This document shows positions 1,002 through 39,449 of a stretch of DNA of 64,000 bases, in pieces. A model generated the notes under the pieces. That model was not told the DNA's origin, did not search any database, and saw nothing but the letters and a program-made list of their open reading frames with translations. Every line of letters begins with the position of its first letter. Within the stretch, counting starts at the first letter, position 1. Origin of the DNA: a bacterium (GTDB lineage: Bacteria > Patescibacteriota > Patescibacteriia > JACPHY01); NCBI GenBank assembly GCA_030647005.1, contig JAUSKG010000021.1, positions 27,105-91,104 of the forward strand, given 5' to 3'. Both the position numbers and the translations under genes were made by a program.

Positions 1002-1859
1002 ATGGCGGCATCGCGTTTTGCTGTCGACGGTGATACGTATTGGAAGATCCGTGGAAAGATGTTGGATATTGAGCGACAGGTGCGGCAGAAGGGTGGATGT
1101 CCGCTCAACCCGCGGCAGTTGCTCGGCGCATTGCAGGCGATTGGTGAGGGTCGCTTCGCACAAGATCCCGCCTCCGCCCTCGTCCTCCCCCAGCGCCCCC
1201 CGCTCATCCACGGAATGTTCGCCAATCTGGAAACCCAGATCGCGAACATGCGAAAGTGGAACGAGCGGCGGAGATGGGGATTCACGTCAGCGGACTTTGT
1301 GCTCGGAGACCCGCCCGCATGGCCAGACGACCGTCTCGTCGCCGTAGTGCTGGTACCCTACCTCCCGGACCACAAGGGAGTAACCGGTATCCAGCGCACC
1401 TTCGACGAGCTGTGGGAAGTTACCTCCCGTCGTCAGCCCAATCGGGACCGATGGAGTGAAGTTCGATCCGACCCGCAGCATCTGACGCTGCTGGACGGCA
1501 TTACCCACACCCCCGGCCTCCGCTGGGAGGTCATTGACCTCGGTGCCAACTGGGACAAGCAGAACGGCATTGCTCCCAACACCGTCCGCTCCCCAGCGTC
1601 ATCTCCCCACGCCGGCATCCTCGCCGCCACAGCCCATCATCCCCGGTGGGTGCGGAAGATGGACAGCACCACCGTTCCATTCGTGTGGGCCCCGGGCTAC
1701 CGCTTAGCGGTTCCCGGCCGCGTTCCCCGCGTGCCGATCGTGGGCTGGAGCCGCGACGAGCGGCTGGTGCACCTGCGCGCGCTCTGGGACGACCGCCGGG
1801 TGCCGGACTACGCTGTTCCCCGTTTTCGTTCGCCGTCTCTCGCAGGGAGTGGCACTTAG
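1002..1859 (+). CDS. hypothetical protein (285 aa)
   Basis: ATG with SD aggagg 7 nt upstream; long high-GC ORF; no family recognised. Confidence 0.55.
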   Translation: MAASRFAVDGDTYWKIRGKMLDIERQVRQKGGCPLNPRQLLGALQAIGEGRFAQDPASALVLPQRPPLIHGMFANLETQIANMRKWNERRRWGFTSADFVLGDPPAWPDDRLVAVVLVPYLPDHKGVTGIQRTFDELWEVTSRRQPNRDRWSEVRSDPQHLTLLDGITHTPGLRWEVIDLGANWDKQNGIAPNTVRSPASSPHAGILAATAHHPRWVRKMDSTTVPFVWAPGYRLAVPGRVPRVPIVGWSRDERLVHLRALWDDRRVPDYAVPRFRSPSLAGSGT

Positions 1860-2097
1860 CCCTTGGACTCTCGGGACTCGGAATACCTTGGCTTCTCTGG
1901 CCTTGGTACTTCCGGGTCCCGTTTCTTTTGCTACCATGGTGATGTGGGAGAGTACGCATATACGCTGCTGTCCACGGATAGCAGTCGCGGAAATCCTTTC
2001 GACACCTCGCATGGAGCAGCCAGAGTTCCATCATTGCCCGTGCGTAATGGAAGCGTGCGGAGCGAGGCGGTCGAGCACTCCGTGCGTTCCTTTGGAG

Positions 2098-2145
2098 ACA
2101 GCGGCCGACTCCAATCGCGCCTTCGCGCACTTCGCGTGGTGATCG
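2098..2145 (+). other. Duplicated fragment of rpsG 3' end (encodes ...[12 protein letters not shown] like the true S7 C-terminus at 6298-6343)
   Basis: 41/44 nt identity with 6301-6343 including stop codon; preceding ORF sequence is not S7-like. Confidence 0.6.
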
Positions 2146-2158
2146 CACTCGTTGGCTA

Positions 2159-2956
2159 GTGCCTATGGTCAATCAACAACTGCTTGAGTATATCAAGCAA
2201 TCAATACAACAGGGGGTGAGTCGTGAGCAGATCAAAAGCACGCTTATGGCGAACGGGTGGCAAGCGCAGGACGTTGAAGAAGGATGGAATAACGTTCATG
2301 CTCCCAGCGTGTCGCGTGCGCATTCGGTAGCCCCCATGAGCACATCAAGCAATACACTGAAAGTGATTGTAGGCATTATGACGGGCATCGTTGTTGTAGG
2401 CGGTGGAACGTATGTGGTCAGTCAAACAATTTTTAAGTCAGAAAAAATGTCCGACGTTTCTCCTGTCGTTGCGCAGCAGCTACCAACCGAAACACCTTTC
2501 GCAATACCCATCCCTCCTCCACCATCTGAACCAGCACCAACTCCTCCTCAACCATCTGAACCAATACCCACGCAAGTGACATCGCAAAATCCTGAGGTGG
2601 TCTTTGCTGATGCATTGCGTTCTTGTACAAAGCATCGCATGACATTTGAACACCCCTTTACGGGAGAAATGTTAGAAAAAGAAATTTTGGGATTCATGAA
2701 CGAAACGTGCAATTATACTGAGCAAATGCCGAATGGCGGAAAAATGGAGTGTCAATATTCCGAGAGCGAGAGGATTGCTGTCGCTCAATATTACAGAGAC
2801 GTTGCAATAGCGGAATCTGTTGGTACAAGTTTGCGTGCTGATCTCGGAAGCGGTGAACAGCAAACGACCTATACTATCAATGGCAAGGTGGTTGATAATC
2901 CCCTGCAAGAAGCAATGGATAGCGGTGCTTGCGTGATCTCGGGTTACGAAAGTTAA
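2159..2956 (+). CDS. hypothetical single-pass membrane protein, Pro-rich linker, Cys-containing extracytoplasmic domain; low-GC gene
   Basis: ~45% GC vs ~65% flanks; cytoplasmic N-domain, TM (IVGIMTGIVVVGGG), PPPPSEPAPTPPQPSEP linker; GTG 2159 or ATG 2165. Confidence 0.6.
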   Translation: MPMVNQQLLEYIKQSIQQGVSREQIKSTLMANGWQAQDVEEGWNNVHAPSVSRAHSVAPMSTSSNTLKVIVGIMTGIVVVGGGTYVVSQTIFKSEKMSDVSPVVAQQLPTETPFAIPIPPPPSEPAPTPPQPSEPIPTQVTSQNPEVVFADALRSCTKHRMTFEHPFTGEMLEKEILGFMNETCNYTEQMPNGGKMECQYSESERIAVAQYYRDVAIAESVGTSLRADLGSGEQQTTYTINGKVVDNPLQEAMDSGACVISGYES

Positions 2957-2960
2957 TATC

Positions 2961-3569
2961 TTGCTTATGAGGATTGTGCAAGAGCATCCGTCGGTCATGA
3001 TCCTGAAAGATAGCAATGTCATTGCCTTTGCTGCTGGAACATTTTTTCTTTTGGTCGGCATTATCGTGATTGTTGAACCAGATCTTTTTACAAACCAACC
3101 TCCTTTTTGGTTGGGATTTGTTTTCATGCTTTTTGGTGGCGGTATGGTCGTTGGGGGAAAAATAATTACGGTGTATCTTGATAAATCGGCGAATAAGCTC
3201 ATTTTTGTGCAAAAGGGACTGAGTGGACGTAAGCGCAAGGAGTACGATCTCAGTCAAATAAAAGAAGTAGAATTATCCGTAGCATACAATGCTGCAAGCA
3301 AGAGCAAGGGCGGCGGACATTCTTATCACGTCGCATTTGTATGCAAGAGCGGCGAAATAATCCAGCTCAATCCCGGTCATGCGTCTGTCCGAAGATTCAT
3401 GGGACGACAGATCATTCCAGAAAAAATCCTTGGTGTAAGGATTGCCGCCTTTTTAGGTGTTCCATTTCAAGAAAGACGACCCCCGACCGTGCAGGAGACC
3501 TTATCAGCCGTCACTTCTGCAATACAGAACGTGGCCGAGCAAGAGGTGACACAACGAAAAACGTTGTGA
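2961..3569 (+). CDS. hypothetical membrane protein, two N-terminal TM helices plus possible bacterial PH-like domain; low-GC gene
   Basis: Low GC, tightly linked to 2159..2956 (5-nt gap); hydrophobic segments FAAGTFFLLVGIIVIV and FWLGFVFMLFGGGMVVGG; PH-like call is weak. Confidence 0.55.
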   Translation: MLMRIVQEHPSVMILKDSNVIAFAAGTFFLLVGIIVIVEPDLFTNQPPFWLGFVFMLFGGGMVVGGKIITVYLDKSANKLIFVQKGLSGRKRKEYDLSQIKEVELSVAYNAASKSKGGGHSYHVAFVCKSGEIIQLNPGHASVRRFMGRQIIPEKILGVRIAAFLGVPFQERRPPTVQETLSAVTSAIQNVAEQEVTQRKTL

Positions 3570-3732
3570 TGTTTGATTGACAGCGGCGCGCGGGAAGCTG
3601 GTAGGCATGTCGAGATGTCCTATTGTTTTGCTTCGACATGTTGACGAAAAACGGCGAGCTCGATTACGCTGGAGAGAGGATCGTGCGCTACGGGAAGCGT
3701 AGGCGCGTTTTTCGTTCTTTCACCCGAGACGT

Positions 3733-4323
3733 GTGGAGGATTCCGTGCAAGAGCATGCTGATGGGAAGCGGAAGCGTGTACCGGTACCAATGCGCGTTGG
3801 GAAGATGCTCACCCTCGTGAACGTGACGTACCAGCGAAGCTGGGATGCGGGCGCGGGTGTGTACCAGTCGCGTGCGGTCGTCGTGCTCCACATGGTTGGA
3901 CACGAGGATATGCTCTGTCACGGGATCGGCAGAGCACCTGCGGGGACGATCACCGCCATCGAACTCGCGCTGCGCGATGCGATCAGCAGAGCCAGTGACA
4001 TCGCGGTGCCACCCCCCGAGCTCCTCGCGTTCGAGATTCACGTCGCGTCCGGCAACACCGAGCCGAGTGCTCCGGCGAACGCGACTGCGGAGGTGAGCGT
4101 GGCGGGCTGCAAGCGGCGCGTGCAGATTGACCACCCCGACGGTGCGACCGCTGGCGCACTCCTCCTTTTCGATGTCTACGATCTCCACCTCTTCGAGCGC
4201 TGGAGTACCCTCCTCAAGGGCGCGCACGTCGATCCCCATGAGGTCCTCGAGCGTGTTCGTACGTATCGCAACCGTCCCGTCGCCGGAGATGGGGTGGGGT
4301 TCCCATCCTCCGACCCTCCGTGA
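3733..4323 (+). CDS. hypothetical protein; start uncertain (GTG 3733/3745 with SD ggagga, or ATG 3790)
   Basis: High-GC ORF followed by a clear hairpin terminator; the overlapping minus ORF 3688..4506 is Arg/Ser-rich antisense-like and was rejected. Confidence 0.4.
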   Translation: MEDSVQEHADGKRKRVPVPMRVGKMLTLVNVTYQRSWDAGAGVYQSRAVVVLHMVGHEDMLCHGIGRAPAGTITAIELALRDAISRASDIAVPPPELLAFEIHVASGNTEPSAPANATAEVSVAGCKRRVQIDHPDGATAGALLLFDVYDLHLFERWSTLLKGAHVDPHEVLERVRTYRNRPVAGDGVGFPSSDPP

Positions 4324-4352
4324 TCGCACTCGCGAGCCCCACGAAACGAAAA

Positions 4353-4386
4353 CCGCTCCGATGAACATCGGAGCGGTTCTCTCTTG
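4353..4386. terminator. Bidirectional intrinsic terminator between convergent genes
   Basis: ccgctccgatg-aac-catcggagcgg followed by ttctctctt on + and a T-rich tract on -. Confidence 0.5.
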
Positions 4387-4396
4387 CGCGTTCTTC

Positions 4397-4591
4397 CTAC
4401 GCCTTTGCCTGCGCCTCCGCGAGGTGCTTCGCGCGCGTACGGAGACAGCTCGTGCAGACGCGCGTGCGCACGCCGTCGAGTCGTTTGCGCACGAGGTTGA
4501 TGCCAAACGTTCGTTTCGTCTTGATGTTTGAGTGGCTCACCGTGTGCCCATTCCCGGAACCACGGCGGCAGACCTCGCATCGCTTCGCCAT
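4397..4591 (-). CDS. rpmB: 50S ribosomal protein L28
   Basis: [38 protein letters not shown]...VCTSCLR matches L28 signature (MAKxCxVC ... VCTxCLR). Confidence 0.8.
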
Positions 4592-4675
4592 ACAGGAGGA
4601 GTACCAATATCCAGCTTCCATCTCCAATGGTCCTACGGTATCATACAGGGAAACGTCGTCAAGTCGGACTGCTCT

Positions 4676-5314
4676 ATGCCCATCACCCTTATCTTCAACC
4701 AGCCAGCAGTTGGTCTCGCGTGGGTCGCAGCCATCCTCGTGGCGCTCGCCATCCATGAGTACGCCCACGCGCTCGTGGGATCATGGCTCGGTGACTCCAC
4801 GGCGCGACACGAGGGGCGACTCACGCTCAACCCGCTCGCGCATGTGGACCCCTTTGGGTTCCTCATGCTCCTCCTTGTGGGATTCGGGTGGGGAAAACCC
4901 GTCCCGTTTGATCCGTCGCAGCTGAAGTACCGCACGTGGGGCCCGGCCATCGTTGCGCTCGCCGGCCCCGCGATGAATCTCATCGGGCTCACGACCGCGG
5001 GTATCCTCCTCGGGGTGCTCGATCGCGTCACCGCGCTCCCGCCGAACAACCTCCTCGTGCTCACCCTCGCGTTCGTCTTCCAGATCAACCTCGTCCTCAT
5101 GCTCTTCAACCTTATCCCCATTCCGCCGCTCGATGGGTCAAAGTTGCTCCTCTCCGCGCTCGCGCACCCTCGATACGACCATGCGCGCTTCGTCCTCACG
5201 ACGCGCGGCCCGATCATCCTCCTCGGTATCATTATCCTCGATCGCGCGATGGGTGGTCTCATCTTCGGTCGTCTCTTCCAGGGCGCCATGGAGCGGATCA
5301 TCGGGTTGTTCTAA
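4676..5314 (+). CDS. site-2 protease family (M50) membrane metalloprotease
   Basis: HEYAHAL (HExxH) in TM helix and [10 protein letters not shown] motif; start by first in-frame ATG, possible upstream non-ATG start. Confidence 0.8.
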
Positions 5315-5455
5315 TCGCTACCGCAGGGCGCACCCCCTTGTGGGTGACCACGCTTGACGGAGAAAACGGCTGTTGCTACAGTAGTTCCTGAAGGCATGAG
5401 GCACTGCCCTTTGGCGTGCTTCCTTTCATTTGCGGGTACTCCAGAATCCTGCGGT

Positions 5456-5872
5456 ATGCCGACGACGAACCAACTCCTCCGCTACGGACGGAAGGCAAAA
5501 TCGAAAAAATCCAAGGCACCGGCGATGCAGTACGTGTTCAACTCCCTGCGCCGCCTGCGGACCAACCTCCCGAAGGGGAGCCCGTTCAAGCGGGGGGTCT
5601 GCCTGAAGGTGACGACGATGACGCCAAAGAAGCCCAACTCCGCGATCCGCAAGATCGCGCGTGTCCGGTTGTCGAACGGTCAGGAAGTGACGGCGTACAT
5701 TCCGGGCATCGGCCACAATCTTCAGGAGCACTCCATCGTGCTCATTCGTGGTGGCCGCGTGCGTGACCTTCCGGGTGTACGCTACCACATCGTCCGCGGT
5801 GTCTACGACTCCACCGGTGTCGAGAATCGCAAGAATAGCCGGTCACTGTACGGCGTGAAGAAGAGCACGTGA
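5456..5872 (+). CDS. rpsL: 30S ribosomal protein S12
   Basis: [13 protein letters not shown]... PNSAIRK ... conserved S12 sequence. Confidence 0.95.
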
Positions 5873-5875
5873 TCT

Positions 5876-6343
5876 ATGCGAGGGAAACAAGCACCACGAC
5901 GCAGCATCACTCCGGATCCGAAGTACGGATCGGTGACGCTTGCGAAGTTCACCAACTACATCATGAAGCGCGGCAAGAAGACCGTTGCGCAGGGGATTGT
6001 GTACGCGGCGTTCGAGGACGTCGCGAAGCGGAGCGAACAGGATCCGCTTGACGTGTTCGCGCGCGCGCTCAAGAACGTCGCACCGGCAATGGAGGTGCGC
6101 TCGAAGCGCGTGGGTGGCGCGAACTACCAGGTGCCCTTCCCCGTACGCGGTGATCGCCGGCAGTCGCTCGCGTTTCGCTGGCTCCTCGGAGCCACGCGGC
6201 AGCGGAAGGGGAAGTCCATGGCGGCACGGCTCGCGGATGAGCTCCTCGCCGCATCGCAGGGCGAGGGTGCTGCCGTGAAGAAGCGCCAGGACGTCCAGCG
6301 CATGGCCGACTCCAACCGCGCTTTCGCACACTTCGCGTGGTGA
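5876..6343 (+). CDS. rpsG: 30S ribosomal protein S7
   Basis: [19 protein letters not shown]... ending [13 protein letters not shown]. Confidence 0.95.
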
Positions 6344-6386
6344 TGACATTCGGTGTTCGCTCCTAGCCCCCTCCTCCCCGTCCCCT

Positions 6387-8474
<2,088 letters not shown>

Positions 8475-25914: not shown

Positions 25915-27285
25915 ATGCAAGAAACACTTCGCATCGTTGACGTGCCGCAGCAGGTTGGCACAGACGTGACCATTGCCGGTCGGGTCGCATCGCGGCGGGA
26001 CATGGGGAAGATCGTCTTCCTCGACGTTCGCGATCGGTACGGGCTTCTCCAGGTTGTCCTGACACCGGACGTCCCCGTCGAGGATCGCCACGCGCCCCAC
26101 CCGAGCGTTCCCGGGACACCGGTAACGCAGAAGGATGTGCGCGAGGGCTCCTACGTCCGCATCACCGGACGCGTGAAGCAGCGCGGTGAGAAGTACGTGA
26201 ACCCGAACATCGCGACGGGCACCGTGGAGATGGAGGCGGGTCAGATCACGATCATCGCCACATCGCAACCCTTCCCCTTCGATCCCCAGGACGATCTCCA
26301 CATCGACACGTACCTCGATCACCTCCCATTCACGCTCCGTACCGACCGCGGGCGCGCGATCTTCCGCGTGCAGGCCGCTATCGTCGAGGGCTTCCGAAGC
26401 GCGCTCACGAAGCGCGGCTTCACGGAGTTCCACGCGCCGAGCATCGTCGGCGGCTCCACGGAGGGCGGGGCGAACGTCTTCACCATTGACTACTTTGGCA
26501 AGCCCGCGTTCCTCGCGCAGTCCCCGCAGTTCTACAAGCAGATCATGGTCGGCATCTTCGAACGCGCCTTCACCGTCGCCACCGCGTTCCGCGCCGAGCT
26601 CCACGCGACGAGTCGTCACCTCAACGAGTACTGCTCGCTCGACTTTGAGTTTGGCCCCATCACCGACCACCGCGATGTCATGCGCATGCAGAACGACATG
26701 CTCATTGATCTCGTCGCACACGTGCGCGCGGTCTGTGCGGACGAGATCGCCGTGCTCGGTGCCACGCTGCCGGAGGTGCCACCGACCATCCCATCGCTCA
26801 AGCTCCGCGAGGCGCAGGAGGTGCTCAAACGCGAGTTCGGCATGGATTGCGTCGGCGAGCCGGACCTCGAGCCCGAGCACGAGCGCAAGCTCTGCGAGTG
26901 GTCCGCACGGGAGCACAGCTCGGACTTCCTCTACGTCACGCACTACCCCACAGCCAAGCGTCCGCTCTACACCATGCCCGACCCCGAGGACCCCGAGTTC
27001 ACACTCTCCTTTGATTTGCTCTTCCGCGGCGTCGAAATCACCACTGGCGGCCAGCGCATCCACGACTACGAAATGCTCAAAGGCAACATCGTGAAGTGGG
27101 GCCTCGATCCTGCTAAGTTCACCTACTACCTCGAGGCCTTCCAATACGGCATGCCCCCCGAAGGCGGCCTCGCCATCGGCCTCGAACGCCTCACCCAGAA
27201 GCTCCTCGGCCTCGACAACGTCAAACTCGCCACCCTCTTCCCGCGAGACATCGGGCGCATTGATGATCGGCTGTCGGCGGGATAG
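25915..27285 (+). CDS. class IIb aminoacyl-tRNA synthetase, archaeal-type AspRS or AsnRS (456 aa)
   Basis: QSPQFYKQ, FRAE (motif 2), GGLAIGLERL (motif 3), N-terminal OB fold; Asp vs Asn not resolvable by eye. Confidence 0.85.
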   Translation: MQETLRIVDVPQQVGTDVTIAGRVASRRDMGKIVFLDVRDRYGLLQVVLTPDVPVEDRHAPHPSVPGTPVTQKDVREGSYVRITGRVKQRGEKYVNPNIATGTVEMEAGQITIIATSQPFPFDPQDDLHIDTYLDHLPFTLRTDRGRAIFRVQAAIVEGFRSALTKRGFTEFHAPSIVGGSTEGGANVFTIDYFGKPAFLAQSPQFYKQIMVGIFERAFTVATAFRAELHATSRHLNEYCSLDFEFGPITDHRDVMRMQNDMLIDLVAHVRAVCADEIAVLGATLPEVPPTIPSLKLREAQEVLKREFGMDCVGEPDLEPEHERKLCEWSAREHSSDFLYVTHYPTAKRPLYTMPDPEDPEFTLSFDLLFRGVEITTGGQRIHDYEMLKGNIVKWGLDPAKFTYYLEAFQYGMPPEGGLAIGLERLTQKLLGLDNVKLATLFPRDIGRIDDRLSAG

Positions 27286-27317: not shown

Positions 27318-27938
27318 ATGGTTATTACTGATCCGCCATCAAACGAAGGGGTTATGGTTCAGCGTGGTTGGGGATGGGTGCTCGCGTCTAGCGATAACGT
27401 CCCTCACGATCCCAGTGAGCATTGTCCAACACGGGATGTGTTTACGGGTCGGTTAGATCATGCCCGCATTCTTCTCGAGCGAGCACCAAAATTTCAGATG
27501 ATAGCATCGGAGCTCATCGCTGCGGTCGGAGAGATTGGGAACAACACGTTTGATCACAACATTGGACAGTGGCGAGATGTTCCAGGGTGTTGGTTCGGGT
27601 GGATGCTTGGAGATGGACATTGGACAGCGGTGATCGCCGATCGCGGCCAGGGTATTCTTGCAACATTGCGTCGTATTCGGCCGGAGCTCCATGATGATAT
27701 GGAGGCGCTTCGTGTTGCGTTCCGCGAGGTGATTTCTGGACGATCTCCCGAGCAGCGGGGGAATGGATTGAAGTTTGTTGCATCCGTCATCGGGCAACGC
27801 GGGGATCGGCAGCTTGAATTTCATTCTGGAGCAGCACAAGTCGTTCTGACATCTCCTAGAAAAGGACGGCACGAGGAATGGTCTCCATCTGTACGGGTGC
27901 TCCCGGGAACCCTTGCCATCCTTTCGGTTATGGTGTAG
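27318..27938 (+). CDS. minimal GHKL-superfamily ATPase, RsbW/SpoIIAB (anti-sigma serine kinase)-like
   Basis: N-box EIGNNTFDH, G1 VIADRGQGI (DxGxG), G2 GRSPEQRGNGLKFV; gene lies at edge of low-GC island; start ATG 27318 (alt GTG 27285). Confidence 0.7.
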   Translation: MVITDPPSNEGVMVQRGWGWVLASSDNVPHDPSEHCPTRDVFTGRLDHARILLERAPKFQMIASELIAAVGEIGNNTFDHNIGQWRDVPGCWFGWMLGDGHWTAVIADRGQGILATLRRIRPELHDDMEALRVAFREVISGRSPEQRGNGLKFVASVIGQRGDRQLEFHSGAAQVVLTSPRKGRHEEWSPSVRVLPGTLAILSVMV

Positions 27939-27953
27939 TATTTTGGTACAACT

Positions 27954-28244
27954 ATGAGAATTGCATTGAGTAAATTTGGGCCCATGTTGGTCTCCCGTCC
28001 CGCAGGTCGTGATGCCCTGTTGATTGCTTCTGCATACCTTACGCCCGTATCGGAAACCGAGTCGATCGAGATCGATTTTACCGGCGTGCATGTACTCACT
28101 CCCTCATGGGCAGACGAGTTTGTTACCGGACTCCGTAAGAAATACGGAGATCGGCTCGTGTTGCTTCCCTCCGATAATGTTTCCGTAAAGCTTACCCTTG
28201 CAACGATCGGTCAATCTCCGAAAACCGGACCTGACGCGGTTTGA
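27954..28244 (+). CDS. small STAS-like protein, DUF4325-type (96 aa)
   Basis: ...SIEIDFTGVHVLTPSWADEFVTGL... pattern of the STAS-like DUF4325 family (assignment from memory, not searched); 16 nt after the ATPase. Confidence 0.6.
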   Translation: MRIALSKFGPMLVSRPAGRDALLIASAYLTPVSETESIEIDFTGVHVLTPSWADEFVTGLRKKYGDRLVLLPSDNVSVKLTLATIGQSPKTGPDAV

Positions 28245-28254
28245 CACGTTCTGT

Positions 28255-28360
28255 GGAAAAAATCGGACCTGACACGATTACCTCTCACCATCTCGTTTTC
28301 ATAGCCCTCCCACACACGGCTGGGCGTTAGAAAAAAATCGGACCTGACACGATTACCGTT
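28255..28360 (+). repeat. Two direct copies of gaaaaaatcggacctgacacgattacc (GACACGATT family)
   Basis: Exact 27-mer at ~28255 and ~28331. Confidence 0.7.
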
Positions 28361-28389
28361 TGCTCGTCGAGAATTTAAAATAGAAACGT

Positions 28390-28584
28390 ATGCTGGACCT
28401 CAAACGCACTCTACTTGCAAAGGAGTTATTTCTGGCTGCCATTATCTTCTATGCCATGGCATGGTTGATCGGAGGTATTTTTGGAGACGCGCTGAAGCTA
28501 ATAGGGTTCATTGCCCTGGCCATGGCAATTATTGCTGCGATTCGTGAAGTCAGGAGAGAGGCAGCAGACAAATCAAAAAAATAA
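28390..28584 (+). CDS. hypothetical 64-aa protein with two TM helices and charged C-terminus
   Basis: MLDLKRTLLAKELFLAAIIFYAMAWLIGGIF...IGFIALAMAIIAAIREVRREAADKSKK; low-GC island. Confidence 0.45.
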   Translation: MLDLKRTLLAKELFLAAIIFYAMAWLIGGIFGDALKLIGFIALAMAIIAAIREVRREAADKSKK

Positions 28585-28602
28585 GGTAAATATAGATAGG
28601 AT

Positions 28603-28836
28603 AATGGTAGGATAATGGTGTCAGGTCTGATTGTCCGTTAAAAAGCGGACCCGACACGATTACTCTTGGGCGGTGGCGGATGTGACGCCGTGATATGATG
28701 ACCGCATGAAACCGGCACAGAGCAACATCGCTCACCTCGACGGCGCGAACGGAACGGAAGGTGCGAGCGATGGGAAAAAGAATCAGACCTGACATCATCA
28801 TCCTTGCTTTCTTCCGCTTGACACCATTATCCTCCA
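28603..28836. mobile_element. ~230-bp GC-rich insert bounded by inverted repeats (aggataatggtgtcaggtctgatt ... aatcagacctgac ... ttgacaccattatcct)
   Basis: Inverted 13-16-mers read directly; internal segment ~62% GC inside ~35% GC surroundings. Confidence 0.4.
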
Positions 28837-28844
28837 CTAAAAAT

Positions 28845-29417
28845 ATGGATAAACTAGAAAATATTTTTATTGGTTTTAGAAATAGTTCATTTGATGAAAT
28901 AATCAAGTTAAATCTTAACCACACTATTTCAAACAAGGAAAAACTAATTTTTAGAACTATTTTTGAAAATTCTGCAAATTTAATTGCTTCGTTTATCAAA
29001 GAAATAAAAGCAAGTAAGTCAATAGAGGAAAAAGATTTTGACTGGATGATGCTACTTTATGTTTTTGTTTGTGTTCAAGAACTTCATGACATACTAGATC
29101 GGGTAGAGAAAACAGACGATGCTCATATAAAAAATACACTGGATGTTAATAAACAAGATTTGATAAATCATCTTAAGAAAATATTAGGTGGTAAAGATAT
29201 GGGTAGTGTTGTGGATAAAACGTTTAATCACATAGAATCTTCTGATAAGGAATCGGGTAATTACAATGAATTTGTTGTTGGAAGAACTTATGTAATTTTT
29301 AGTATGTTAAAAGAAAATCAAGTTAATATTGAAAATATGTCAAGTGAAAAATTACTACAAATTTCAGAAGAAAATTATAAAAATAGTATAGTAAATTTTG
29401 TAAAGATTTGTGTCTAG
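28845..29417 (+). CDS. hypothetical protein, very low GC (~28%), 190 aa
   Basis: ATG 28845 (track ORF starts 28761); Lys/Asn/Ile-rich; no recognisable domain. Confidence 0.5.
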   Translation: MDKLENIFIGFRNSSFDEIIKLNLNHTISNKEKLIFRTIFENSANLIASFIKEIKASKSIEEKDFDWMMLLYVFVCVQELHDILDRVEKTDDAHIKNTLDVNKQDLINHLKKILGGKDMGSVVDKTFNHIESSDKESGNYNEFVVGRTYVIFSMLKENQVNIENMSSEKLLQISEENYKNSIVNFVKICV

Positions 29418-29526
29418 TAAAGAGAGCAAGGTAGAAAAAGGGAAAAAGGAAAGGGGAGATAAAGAGAGATAAAGTGAAAAAATGGACTTGACCCCTTTCT
29501 TGTCTTTCTTGCATTTGCTGCTTTCT

Positions 29527-29583
29527 TGACACTATAAAATCGGACTTGACACGATTTCCGTGGACATGACACGATTTCCGACA
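29527..29583 (+). repeat. Three tandem GACACGATTTCC copies (GACACGATT family)
   Basis: aaaatcggacttgacacgatttccgtggacatgacacgatttccgacacgatttcc immediately upstream of ATG 29594. Confidence 0.7.
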
Positions 29584-29593
29584 CGATTTCCAT

Positions 29594-29899
29594 ATGTGGG
29601 AGGATCTCGACAAAAAAGAAAAAGGGGAAGTCGTGAATTTGGGACTGGCTATTTTGGTCGGCTTGCTTTTCTTGACATATTTTATTCGGGGCGTGAGAGA
29701 TGCTCCTCATGTAGCTGACTACCGTGAGCAATTCAGTGACTGTATGGAGGGTGCAAAGAATGGTCAGGAGCGCTATTTTTGTAAGGAGCATTTTGGTGAA
29801 CCAATGCTTTGGTTACAATTCAAGGAATGCAAGAAGGACCAAAAAAATAAAGTATGTAAAAAAATATTAAATGAACAGCTAATGGATCTTTACAAATAA
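29594..29899 (+). CDS. hypothetical 101-aa protein, N-terminal TM anchor, Cys-rich ectodomain
   Basis: VVNLGLAILVGLLFLTYFI then CMEGAKNGQERYFCKEHF...KECKKDQKNKVCKK. Confidence 0.5.
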   Translation: MWEDLDKKEKGEVVNLGLAILVGLLFLTYFIRGVRDAPHVADYREQFSDCMEGAKNGQERYFCKEHFGEPMLWLQFKECKKDQKNKVCKKILNEQLMDLYK

Positions 29900-29902
29900 T
29901 TT

Positions 29903-29965
29903 GCAGAAATCGTGTCAATGCAGAAATCGTGCGAAAAACCGTGTGCCAAATCGTGTCAGGTCTGC
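29903..29965 (-). repeat. Three inverted-orientation copies of the GACACGATT motif
   Basis: cagaaatcgtgtcaatgcagaaatcgtgcgaaaaaccgtgtgccaaatcgtgtcaggtctg. Confidence 0.65.
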
Positions 29966-29977
29966 TCTGTTAATAAA

Positions 29978-30110
29978 GGGGTCAAGTCCATTTCTTCGAT
30001 GATGACGGCTATAGGGAGCACGAGGTGATCGAGTGCACAGATAAAGGGGTCAAGTCCATTTATTTGACGATGACGGCTATAGGGAGCACGAGGTGATCGA
30101 GTTTGGCCCA
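29978..30110 (+). repeat. Two tandem ~68-bp units (ataaaggggtcaagtccattt...gatgacggctatagggagcacgaggtgatcgagt) plus partial third
   Basis: Near-identical units at 29978-30045 and 30046-30113. Confidence 0.7.
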
Positions 30111-30197
30111 TTTCCCTTTCATAGAGGGAATACGAAGTGATCCAGAGCACTGCTTGGGGGGGGGTAGAGAAGGGTTGATCGAACGCGGCGTGCCGTC

Positions 30198-30659
30198 TCA
30201 TTGCATCGAGCAGAGGGTTGAGAAATCCGAGACCGAGAGCTCCGGGATTGGCGATGTCGTAATGGCAGCGCAATGACGCTTGTCCCTCGTGAAGCGTGCG
30301 AGGTAGAAGGAGCAGCTCCCGCGCTCGCCGTCGTTTTGTTGCTGTGCACACGTTTGCACGGCGTTGGCAGCGTCATTGAGGTCGCAGCGTTCCTCGATAT
30401 CCGCTGGACATGGTGCGTTGACGCAGACAAGTTGGTGTTCCACAGCGCTGTAGGAGCCGTTGAGTTTTCGACACCACTCCTCGGTGCGGCCGGTGACCTC
30501 GTACTGTCGCGCTGCCTGGGCAGGATCATCTGGCCATGCGGCATCATATGCCGCTCGACGTTGATCATCCGCTGCACGCCGCGCAACTGCCATGACAACG
30601 ATCGCGACAACAAGCGCAGCAATGGCGAGGAGTGCGATAGTTTGGTTGCGACGCGACAT
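30198..30659 (-). CDS. hypothetical secreted/membrane-anchored Cys-rich protein (153 aa)
   Basis: N-terminal TM IALLAIAALVVAIVVMAV; 10 Cys; overlapping + ORFs judged spurious. Confidence 0.55.
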   Translation of the reverse strand: MSRRNQTIALLAIAALVVAIVVMAVARRAADDQRRAAYDAAWPDDPAQAARQYEVTGRTEEWCRKLNGSYSAVEHQLVCVNAPCPADIEERCDLNDAANAVQTCAQQQNDGERGSCSFYLARFTRDKRHCAAITTSPIPELSVSDFSTLCSMQ

Positions 30660-30732
30660 ACGAGCTGGTGAGGGCCGATGCTTGAGTTTAGTTTCTTATC
30701 CCGTTCAGTATAGCACGAAAATCGAAGGTGGA

Positions 30733-30822
30733 TAAAGGGGTCAAGTCCATTTCTTTGACGATGGCGGCTATAGGGAGCACGAGGTGATCCAGTGAAAAAT
30801 GGACTTGACCCCTTTCTCCTTT
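30733..30822. mobile_element. MITE-like ~90-bp element with perfect 19-bp terminal inverted repeats (aaaggggtcaagtccattt / aaatggacttgacccctttc)
   Basis: Same internal sequence as the 29978 tandem units; solo right-end copies at ~29468-29496 and ~30823-30850. Confidence 0.6.
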
Positions 30823-38433: not shown

Positions 38434-38507
38434 AGCGGGGTGGAGCAGTTTGGCAGCTCGCCAGGCCCATAACCTGGAGGTCGTCGGTTCAAATCCGACC
38501 CCCGCCA
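38434..38507 (+). tRNA. initiator tRNA-Met (CAT); no encoded CCA
   Basis: Acceptor, D and T arms nearly identical to E. coli tRNA-fMet (GCGGGGTGGAGCAG...GGTCGTCGGTTCAAATCCG); 1:72 A-C mismatch; anticodon loop cCCATAA. Confidence 0.85.
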
Positions 38508-38584: not shown

Positions 38585-38656
38585 GGCGGGGTAGCTCAGT
38601 GGTAGAGCAGCGGACTCATAAGCCGTTGGTCGCGGGTTCAACCCCCGCCCCCGCTA
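38585..38656 (+). tRNA. tRNA with CAT anticodon (elongator Met or lysidine-dependent Ile)
   Basis: ggcgggg acceptor, D-arm tagctcagtggtagagca, loop ctCATaa, T-arm gcgggttcaaccccc. Confidence 0.8.
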
Positions 38657-39365: not shown

Positions 39366-39449
39366 TGCCGCGGGAGGGGATCGAACCCTCATGACCTTGC
39401 GGCCACAGGAGTTTGAGTCCTGCGCGTCTGCCGGTTCCGCCACCGCGGC
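39366..39449 (-). tRNA. tRNA-Leu (CAA), type II with long variable arm
   Basis: Reverse complement: gccgcggtggcggaaccggcagacgcgcaggactCAAactcctgtggccgcaaggtcatgagggttcgatcccctcccgcggca. Confidence 0.85.

Follow-up and report, generated by a model that had tools for sequence, protein, structure and literature searches.

A GHKL-fold protein and a DUF4325 STAS protein encoded as a conserved two-gene module in Patescibacteria and other bacteria

The gene pair at the aspS junction

The 64-kb stretch of the 121-kb contig JAUSKG010000021.1 analysed here as a whole (the window), which comes from a bacterium of the Patescibacteriota, carries at the 3' end of its aspS gene two adjacent genes on the forward strand. 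The first open reading frame (ORF A) encodes a stand-alone protein of the GHKL superfamily, of the type of the anti-sigma serine kinases, and the second (ORF B) encodes a small protein with a STAS fold that belongs to the Pfam family DUF4325. The window copy is an ordinary-looking member of an undescribed family, in which the noteworthy features are the bare two-gene core, the helix-turn-helix (HTH) domains fused to the kinase and the operator-like motifs. The coordinates of the genes and motifs are collected in Table 1.

Both genes are real and functional and evolve under purifying selection. The ratio of nonsynonymous to synonymous substitution rates (dN/dS) is 0.07-0.18 for the two genes when they are compared with relatives that are 75-91% identical, which rules out a pseudogene or a chance ORF. 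The first-pass annotation, made from the letters of the DNA, had correctly placed the pair at 27,318-28,244 and had given ORF B its 96 residues, but ORF A has 206 residues from its ATG and not 208, and the gap between the two genes is 15 nt and not 16. An alternative GTG start at 27,285, which overlaps the stop codon of aspS, would lengthen ORF A by 11 residues to 217. The Met-1 start of ORF B is kept in 119 of 121 homologues, so the 86-aa version of ORF B called in a public assembly is probably too short.

The NCBI record leaves room for one protein only (MDO8463124) between the aspartyl-tRNA synthetase (AspRS; MDO8463123) and a 64-aa protein (MDO8463125), and therefore one of the two genes of the pair seems to be unannotated there. 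Among the NCBI proteins, none of the sequences of 206, 217 or 194 aa, or of 96 or 86 aa, was found recorded.

Fold and conserved motifs of ORF A

Proteins of the GHKL superfamily are recognized by an N box (E...N), a G1 box (DxGxG), a G2 box (GxxGxG-like) and an alpha/beta sandwich with an ATP lid, the Bergerat fold. ORF A carries all three motifs, and those quoted in the first-pass annotation are present in the protein, EIGNNTFDH at residues 72-80, DRGQG at 108-112 and GNGLKF at 148-153. Glu72, Asn76 and His80 of the N box and Asp108, Gly110 and Gly112 of the G1 box are invariant in alignments of 34 and of 80 homologues, and in the G2 box, where the ATP lid ends, Arg147, Gly148, Asn149, Gly150, Leu151 and Lys152 do not vary among 80 species. 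In an alignment of profiles made with hhalign, which is weak (E 0.01), Glu72, Asn76 and His80 fall on Glu46, Asn50 and His54 of Bacillus subtilis SpoIIAB, and Asp108, Gly110 and Gly112 fall on its G1 box.

The structure model of ORF A has a mean predicted local distance difference test (pLDDT) score of 91.4 and forms a Bergerat fold, whose only low-confidence stretch, residues 141-150 (pLDDT 61), is where an ATP lid is expected. Every Foldseek match of the model is a GHKL protein, the closest structures are SpoIIAB, RsbW and UsfX, and the models of ORF A and ORF B match the two chains of the SpoIIAB:SpoIIAA system. The earlier assignment of ORF A to the GHKL fold of RsbW/SpoIIAB type is thus confirmed at the level of the model, the Foldseek matches and the invariant boxes. 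The protein ends where the Bergerat fold ends and has no transducer domain. GHL ATPases use a transducer domain for hydrolysis, while an architecture that ends at the Bergerat fold is that of kinases.

Upstream of the ATP-binding core, ORF A has a family-specific N-terminal motif, CPTRDVF, in and next to which Cys36, Thr38, Arg39, Asp40, Phe42 and Arg45 are invariant or nearly so in the same two alignments. This motif is a candidate surface for binding of a partner or for dimerisation.

The STAS partner

ORF B matches the Pfam model DUF4325 (PF14213) with 32.8 bits, for a cut-off of 23, and its AlphaFold model (pLDDT 91) is a STAS domain, whose closest structures are SpoIIAA and RsbV. The protein is therefore a member of the STAS superfamily and of DUF4325, as had been predicted from the pattern SIEIDFTGVHVLTPSWADEF, which is found at residues 37-56 and includes the signature DFTGVHVLTPSWADEF. 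Ser51 is present in all 121 homologues, position 49 is Ser or Thr in 113 of them, and Pro50, Trp52, Asp54 and Glu55 are invariant or nearly so.

In the secondary structure of the model, Thr49-Pro50-Ser51 sits where the long helix of residues 50-67 begins, and Thr49 or Ser51 would thus occupy the same class of position as the phosphorylated Ser58 of SpoIIAA. The alignment of the STAS family with SpoIIAA by hhalign gives no signal, so this proposed equivalence is drawn from the secondary-structure register only.

Distribution of the family and pairing of the two genes

The kinase family is compact and well separated. Among 1.84 billion representative sequences clustered at 50% identity, it comprises 139 clusters at E<=1e-30, 304 at 1e-10 and 1176 at 1e-3; ORF A homologues number 1135 at E<=1e-3. 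A scan of one genome per species finds relatives in at least 553 species genomes. Among the matches listed, the majority are from Patescibacteria (candidate phyla radiation bacteria), and further ones come from metagenome-assembled genomes (MAGs) labelled Bdellovibrionales, Elusimicrobia or Gammaproteobacteria.

The kinase and STAS genes are an obligate pair. In 88 of 89 loci the gene directly 3' of the kinase gene, on the same strand, is a DUF4325 gene; the single unpaired locus is cut by the end of its contig. The two genes are separated by a few nucleotides or overlap. No third gene is conserved beside them: the 403 neighbours within three positions fall into 351 clusters, the largest of which is present in five loci, no Pfam family occurs more than three times among the 143 immediate neighbours, many of which are housekeeping genes, and the 400-nt flanks of the loci contain no conserved small ORF. 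The commonest neighbours are a TrmB-like regulator, an HTH-Fic protein, AbiEii and an AAA_14-DUF4143 protein, each in three to five loci.

Neither a sigma factor nor a SpoIIE/PP2C phosphatase is among the recurrent neighbours in 80 species, so what had been noticed beside the window pair, the lack of both, extends to the whole family, and the survey of homologous pairs that the first-pass annotation proposed gives no consistent link to a sigma factor. The 64-kb window itself contains no sequence like sigma-70 region 2 (best tblastn E 1.5, with region 2 of Escherichia coli RpoD as query). The small membrane proteins that the first-pass annotation had noticed beside the pair are not its partners: they are confined to this genome, and in the relatives different genes follow the pair.

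Two contigs of one Candidatus Peribacteria MAG (loci L055 and L056) each carry a copy in which the kinase is fused to a MerR-type HTH domain. These copies are sisters on the tree, so duplication of the module within one genome can occur. Only one locus (L094, positions 1822-6498) was found among the 2.9 million viral contigs of IMG/VR, and GenBank phages and plasmids give no match for either protein. In L094 the kinase is MerR-fused and its gene, at the edge of the contig, comes immediately after a large serine recombinase. Genes for the small and large terminase lie upstream, and the region upstream of the kinase gene lacks the TGCATAG repeats described below; the kinase gene may stand at a prophage boundary or be part of a lysogeny module.

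HTH fusions and operator-like motifs

In about half of the family (41 of 80 species) the kinase carries an N-terminal HTH domain, which is of MerR type in 33 and a winged HTH in seven or eight. The remaining species, the window copy included, have a kinase without HTH, and no separate HTH gene lies beside these forms. A neighbour-joining tree of the kinase core groups the MerR forms in one clade and most of the winged-helix forms in another, and it places the window kinase in a basal group without HTH, so HTH fusions arose at least twice.

Each of the two HTH types has its own motif at the promoter of the pair. Direct repeats of a motif with the consensus TTGCATAGATTT lie upstream of the MerR-type genes. 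The strict pattern T[GA]CATAG[AGT]T has 51 copies on the coding strand in 33 MerR-type start windows, with at least one copy in 23 loci and at least two in 15, while the remainder of these loci gives a background of 0.009 per 290 nt. The copies are spaced by multiples of the helical repeat (10, 20, 21, 30 and 42 nt), and the pattern is not found upstream of genes without HTH. The winged-helix forms have the motif TATAGT[GT]TA, which is partly palindromic and overlaps the -10 region, with 12 matches in eight windows for a background of 0.003. No further sites were found within about 6 kb. Apparent clusters of the MerR-type motif elsewhere in the loci were TATATA low-complexity sequence picked up by a looser pattern, for which reason the strict pattern was used.

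Because the sites are specific to the HTH type and lie at the module's own promoter, as direct repeats for one type and as a partly palindromic motif for the other, the HTH-fused kinases are read as proteins that most likely bind DNA and autoregulate their own operon. The window copy has neither the HTH nor an operator-like motif.

Origin of the window copy and its surrounding island

The pair lies in foreign-looking DNA, as the first-pass annotation had supposed. The GC content falls from about 0.65 to 0.50-0.56 over the pair and to 0.24-0.30 further downstream, and the GC content at third codon positions (GC3) is 0.84 in aspS, 0.49 and 0.51 in the two genes of the pair and 0.22 in the next large ORF. 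By its composition, the window pair looks acquired.

A related locus (L090), whose AspRS is 72% and whose kinase is 78% identical to those of the window, also has the pair directly after aspS. There a 123-bp duplicate of the aspS 3' end, which is 78% identical to the resident copy, comes immediately after the pair, and two shorter copies of the aspS 3' end are found further downstream, between orphan genes. These duplicates form a pattern of repeated insertion at the 3' end of the gene and suggest tandem insertions at the aspS 3' end in this locus. No integrase is found on its 3.6-kb contig. In relatives at 78% identity the genes upstream or downstream of the pair are different. The pair behaves as a small horizontally moving cassette, which is here lodged at the aspS 3' end.

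A displaced remnant of the aspS 3' end like those of L090 was searched for in the window and none was found. The final codons of ORF B lead into an AT-rich stretch with island-specific repeats, and the C-terminus of the protein diverges from its relatives at this junction. This makes the island composite, and the pair one cassette in it. It contains no tRNA genes and no Rfam families.

Two repeats are confined to the island. The 17-mer TCGGACCTGACACGATT has eight copies on the two strands, with up to three mismatches, where chance would give 0.19. They lie in the gaps on either side of each orphan ORF, and the first copy extends over the final codons of the STAS gene. The 17-mer includes a -35 element like TTGAC(A) and may be a repeated promoter or operator unit or an element of cassette boundaries. 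The 19-mer AAAGGGGTCAAGTCCATTT has five exact copies in both orientations (0 expected by chance) and belongs to a 63-nt repeat with three copies and no Rfam match. A 218-aa orphan ORF of the island has a GC content of 0.28 and a GC3 of 0.22, for a genome GC content of about 0.63. It has no match in Pfam, NCBIfam or PADLOC, and a second assembly of this organism is the only other place where it was found.

Proposed mechanism and alternatives

The favoured reading, which has about an even chance of being correct, is that the pair is one operon encoding a minimal partner-switching core, made of a kinase and its dedicated STAS substrate and antagonist. The ATP-bound ORF A kinase would bind ORF B and phosphorylate Thr49 or Ser51 at the start of the long helix, while the unphosphorylated STAS protein would sequester the kinase. 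Whether the kinase is free for another, third partner, which this scheme supposes to exist, would then depend on the ATP/ADP state and on how much fresh STAS protein is supplied. Across the family this other activity of the kinase would be tied to DNA and not to a sigma factor, and for the window copy, which has no HTH, the target would be encoded elsewhere or be a universal component of the host.

Several observations weigh against a partner-switching core. Both the kinase activity and the phosphorylation site are predictions, and the form without HTH has no candidate output. The search for profiles proposed in the first-pass annotation recovered DUF4325 for ORF B, but ORF A as a single sequence has no match in Pfam (E<=1), NCBIfam or PADLOC; HATPase_c_2 (PF13581), to whose members the fold of ORF A is closest, is matched, with a best E of 1.8e-5, by 12 of 34 sampled homologues and by five of 80 homologues. 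Searching PDB sequences with profiles of the two families yielded nothing of use. In a simple motif register the phosphorylated serine of SpoIIAA aligns with Thr49/Pro50 and not with the invariant Ser51, and position 49 is Ala in seven of the 121 sequences. The order of the genes, kinase and then STAS, is the reverse of that in spoIIAA-AB and rsbV-W, and with no phosphatase gene linked the switch is not evidently reversible. The HTH may also serve autoregulation only, and this would suit a conflict module equally well.

Such a module, toxin-antitoxin-like or directed against phages, is a less likely but live alternative, in which the kinase would be an effector that phosphorylates an essential, universal target of the host or of a phage, the STAS protein would be a pseudo-substrate that keeps the kinase inactive and the HTH would do no more than autoregulate, as in type II systems. 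Put more specifically, and with the same doubt, the pair could represent a new class of conflict module, of toxin-antitoxin-like or abortive-infection kind, that is mobile and spreads among Patescibacteria. It would consist of a kinase and its pseudo-substrate, with a SpoIIAB-like serine kinase that arrests growth, a STAS protein that serves as its decoy and interchangeable HTHs that provide autoregulation. Of the features of type II toxin-antitoxin systems, the two-gene unit is seen, and operator repeats at the own promoter are seen in the HTH-fused relatives. The cassette is self-contained in a variable context, is spread patchily over Patescibacteria, Bdellovibrionales, Elusimicrobia and MAGs labelled Gammaproteobacteria, has foreign GC content and a duplicated insertion site, occurs twice in one MAG and has HTH types that are interchangeable, with operators only at its own promoter, all of which favour this explanation. 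The AbiEii, HTH-Fic and AAA_14-DUF4143 neighbours point the same way, as they recur, though infrequently. Other DUF4325 genes are found in comparable settings, since a small stand-alone DUF4325 protein is transcriptionally coupled to the PIN.4 subfamily of VapC-like proteins (PMC5499597) and the DUF4325 gene Fhv_0047 lies in a two-gene arrangement in a Francisella prophage (PMC7924643).

However, PADLOC-DB 2.0.0 gives no match at E<=1 for ORF A, ORF B or four neighbouring ORFs, the PADLOC matches among neighbours of the family are scattered, and the immediate neighbours are mostly housekeeping genes. The enrichment in defence islands that the first-pass annotation had proposed to look for thus gives no clear signal, the AbiEii, Fic and DUF4143 genes being scattered as well. 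The near absence from viral contigs, phages and plasmids speaks against a conflict module, as does a conservation that is unusual for a conflict gene, with at least 40% identity across phyla and long invariant motifs. The DNA-binding domain, moreover, is on the supposed toxin and not on the supposed antitoxin.

An ordinary pair of an anti-sigma factor and its antagonist, with the genes for the sigma factor and the PP2C phosphatase at other places of the genome, is unlikely. Rsb genes are dispersed in the genome of Chlamydia, the closest structures to both proteins are from such systems (SpoIIAB, RsbW and UsfX; SpoIIAA and RsbV), and the inspection covered 64 kb of this genome and about 12 kb for each relative. 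Against it, neither a sigma nor a PP2C family recurs beside the pair in 80 species and the window has no sigma-70 region-2-like sequence. The kinase has also acquired two classes of HTH independently, which is not a feature of anti-sigma factors, and the cassette moves across distant lineages, so that a lineage-specific alternative sigma factor is improbable as its constant partner. Tested as a partner-switching system, the pair has the co-encoded kinase and STAS protein, in reversed order, and lacks a co-encoded sigma factor and PP2C phosphatase nearby.

That ORF A is an ATPase or nucleotide sensor with a non-phosphorylated STAS regulatory subunit, like MlaB for the MlaF ATPase, is very improbable, for although the ATPase domains of topoisomerases, GyrB and Hsp90 take the top Foldseek ranks and no phosphatase is linked, ORF A ends with the Bergerat fold, lacks the transducer domain of GHL ATPases and has a partner with an invariant Ser/Thr patch at the N-terminus of a helix.

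Comparison with known systems

The pair would work in the manner of the systems SpoIIAB-SpoIIAA (sigma F) and RsbW-RsbV (sigma B) of Firmicutes, and its STAS protein, like theirs, appears to have a conserved Ser/Thr where the second long helix begins. Unlike these systems, the pair has no sigma or PP2C gene in or near its operon in the 80 species, and its genes are in the order kinase and then STAS. Its STAS protein belongs to DUF4325 and has no detectable similarity to SpoIIAA at the sequence level, and its kinase, unlike SpoIIAB and RsbW, has the additional conserved N-terminal motif W...CPTRDVFxxRLD and, in half of the family, a fused HTH.

SiaB-SiaC of Pseudomonas aeruginosa, which consists of an RsbW-like kinase and a divergent STAS-like protein, controls a diguanylate cyclase without any sigma factor and is, by analogy, the nearest sigma-less precedent. 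The Sia operon, however, also encodes the phosphatase SiaA and the output enzyme SiaD, while the pair has no other linked gene, and SiaC belongs to DUF1987 and not to DUF4325. HipBA-type modules are likewise two-gene kinase modules with HTH autoregulation and horizontal mobility, and HTH-kinase fusions are known among HipA relatives. The likeness is one of function only, as the HipA kinase fold is eukaryotic-like and not GHKL and its antitoxin has no STAS domain. In the other DUF4325 pairs the partner is a PIN nuclease domain or an unannotated protein, whereas here it is a GHKL kinase. The searchable literature contains no description of a GHKL-DUF4325 pair and mentions DUF4325 only incidentally, which bears out the earlier statement that the pairing is uncharacterised.

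Partner switching follows a textbook logic and is, to our knowledge, known almost only as a combination of kinase, STAS protein, sigma factor (or another co-encoded output) and phosphatase. Here what would be the core alone makes up a compact and strongly conserved family, which never goes beyond the bare pair and occurs in bacteria that have very few regulators. With two small proteins, one defined DNA site and ATP as its components, the system is directly testable and could reveal a partner switch that is wired straight to DNA or a core that acts as a selfish or defensive module, and a first function for DUF4325 would follow.

Feature coordinates and other observations

Three paralogous proteins of about 560 aa, which have no Pfam domain, flank the pair in a Candidatus Peribacteraceae MAG (loci L010 and L002) and in a related metagenome contig (L093).

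Table 1. Coordinates of the genes, motifs and repeats in the window and in related loci
Feature	Position	Strand	Description
Kinase gene (ORF A)	27318..27938	+	206 aa from ATG; stand-alone GHKL (Bergerat-fold) protein of anti-sigma serine-kinase type, no HTH
STAS gene (ORF B)	27954..28244	+	96 aa; STAS fold, Pfam DUF4325
CPTRDVF, ORF A residues 36-42	27423..27443	+	Family-specific, N-terminal, 5' of the ATP-binding core
N box GEIGNNTFDHN, ORF A residues 71-81	27528..27560	+	E72, N76 and H80 in E-x3-N-x3-H register
G1 box DRGQG, ORF A residues 108-112	27639..27653	+	Aligns with SpoIIAB DEGLG
G2 box and end of ATP lid RGNGLKF, ORF A residues 147-153	27756..27776	+	R147 to K152 invariant in 80 species
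Signature DFTGVHVLTPSWADEF, ORF B residues 41-56	28074..28121	+	T49-P50-S51 at 28098-28106
aspS	25915..27285	+	Aspartate--tRNA(Asn) ligase (NCBI name); its 3' end is the junction that holds the pair
17-mer repeat	28225-29965		Eight copies, island only
218-aa orphan ORF	28761-29417		Island
19-mer repeat	29480-30815		Five exact copies, island only
63-nt repeat	29972-30034, 30040-30102, 30731-30793		Three copies; contains the 19-mer
tRNA-Met (CAT), two genes	38434-38507, 38585-38656		78 nt apart
tRNA-Leu	39366-39449		Near the tRNA-Met genes
aspS 3'-end copies (up to four), L090	450-575, 1492-1614, 2680-2738, 2850-2909		Parted by the pair and by orphan ORFs without Pfam matches
Paralogues of about 560 aa, L010	4234-5913, 6932-8623		Flank the pair
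Paralogue of about 560 aa, L002	8775-10451		Flanks the pair
Paralogues of about 560 aa, L093	4049-5725, 6935-8647, 8716-10386		Flank the pair

Further along the window are two tRNA-Met genes and, near them, a tRNA-Leu gene, all three of which are unrelated to the pair.
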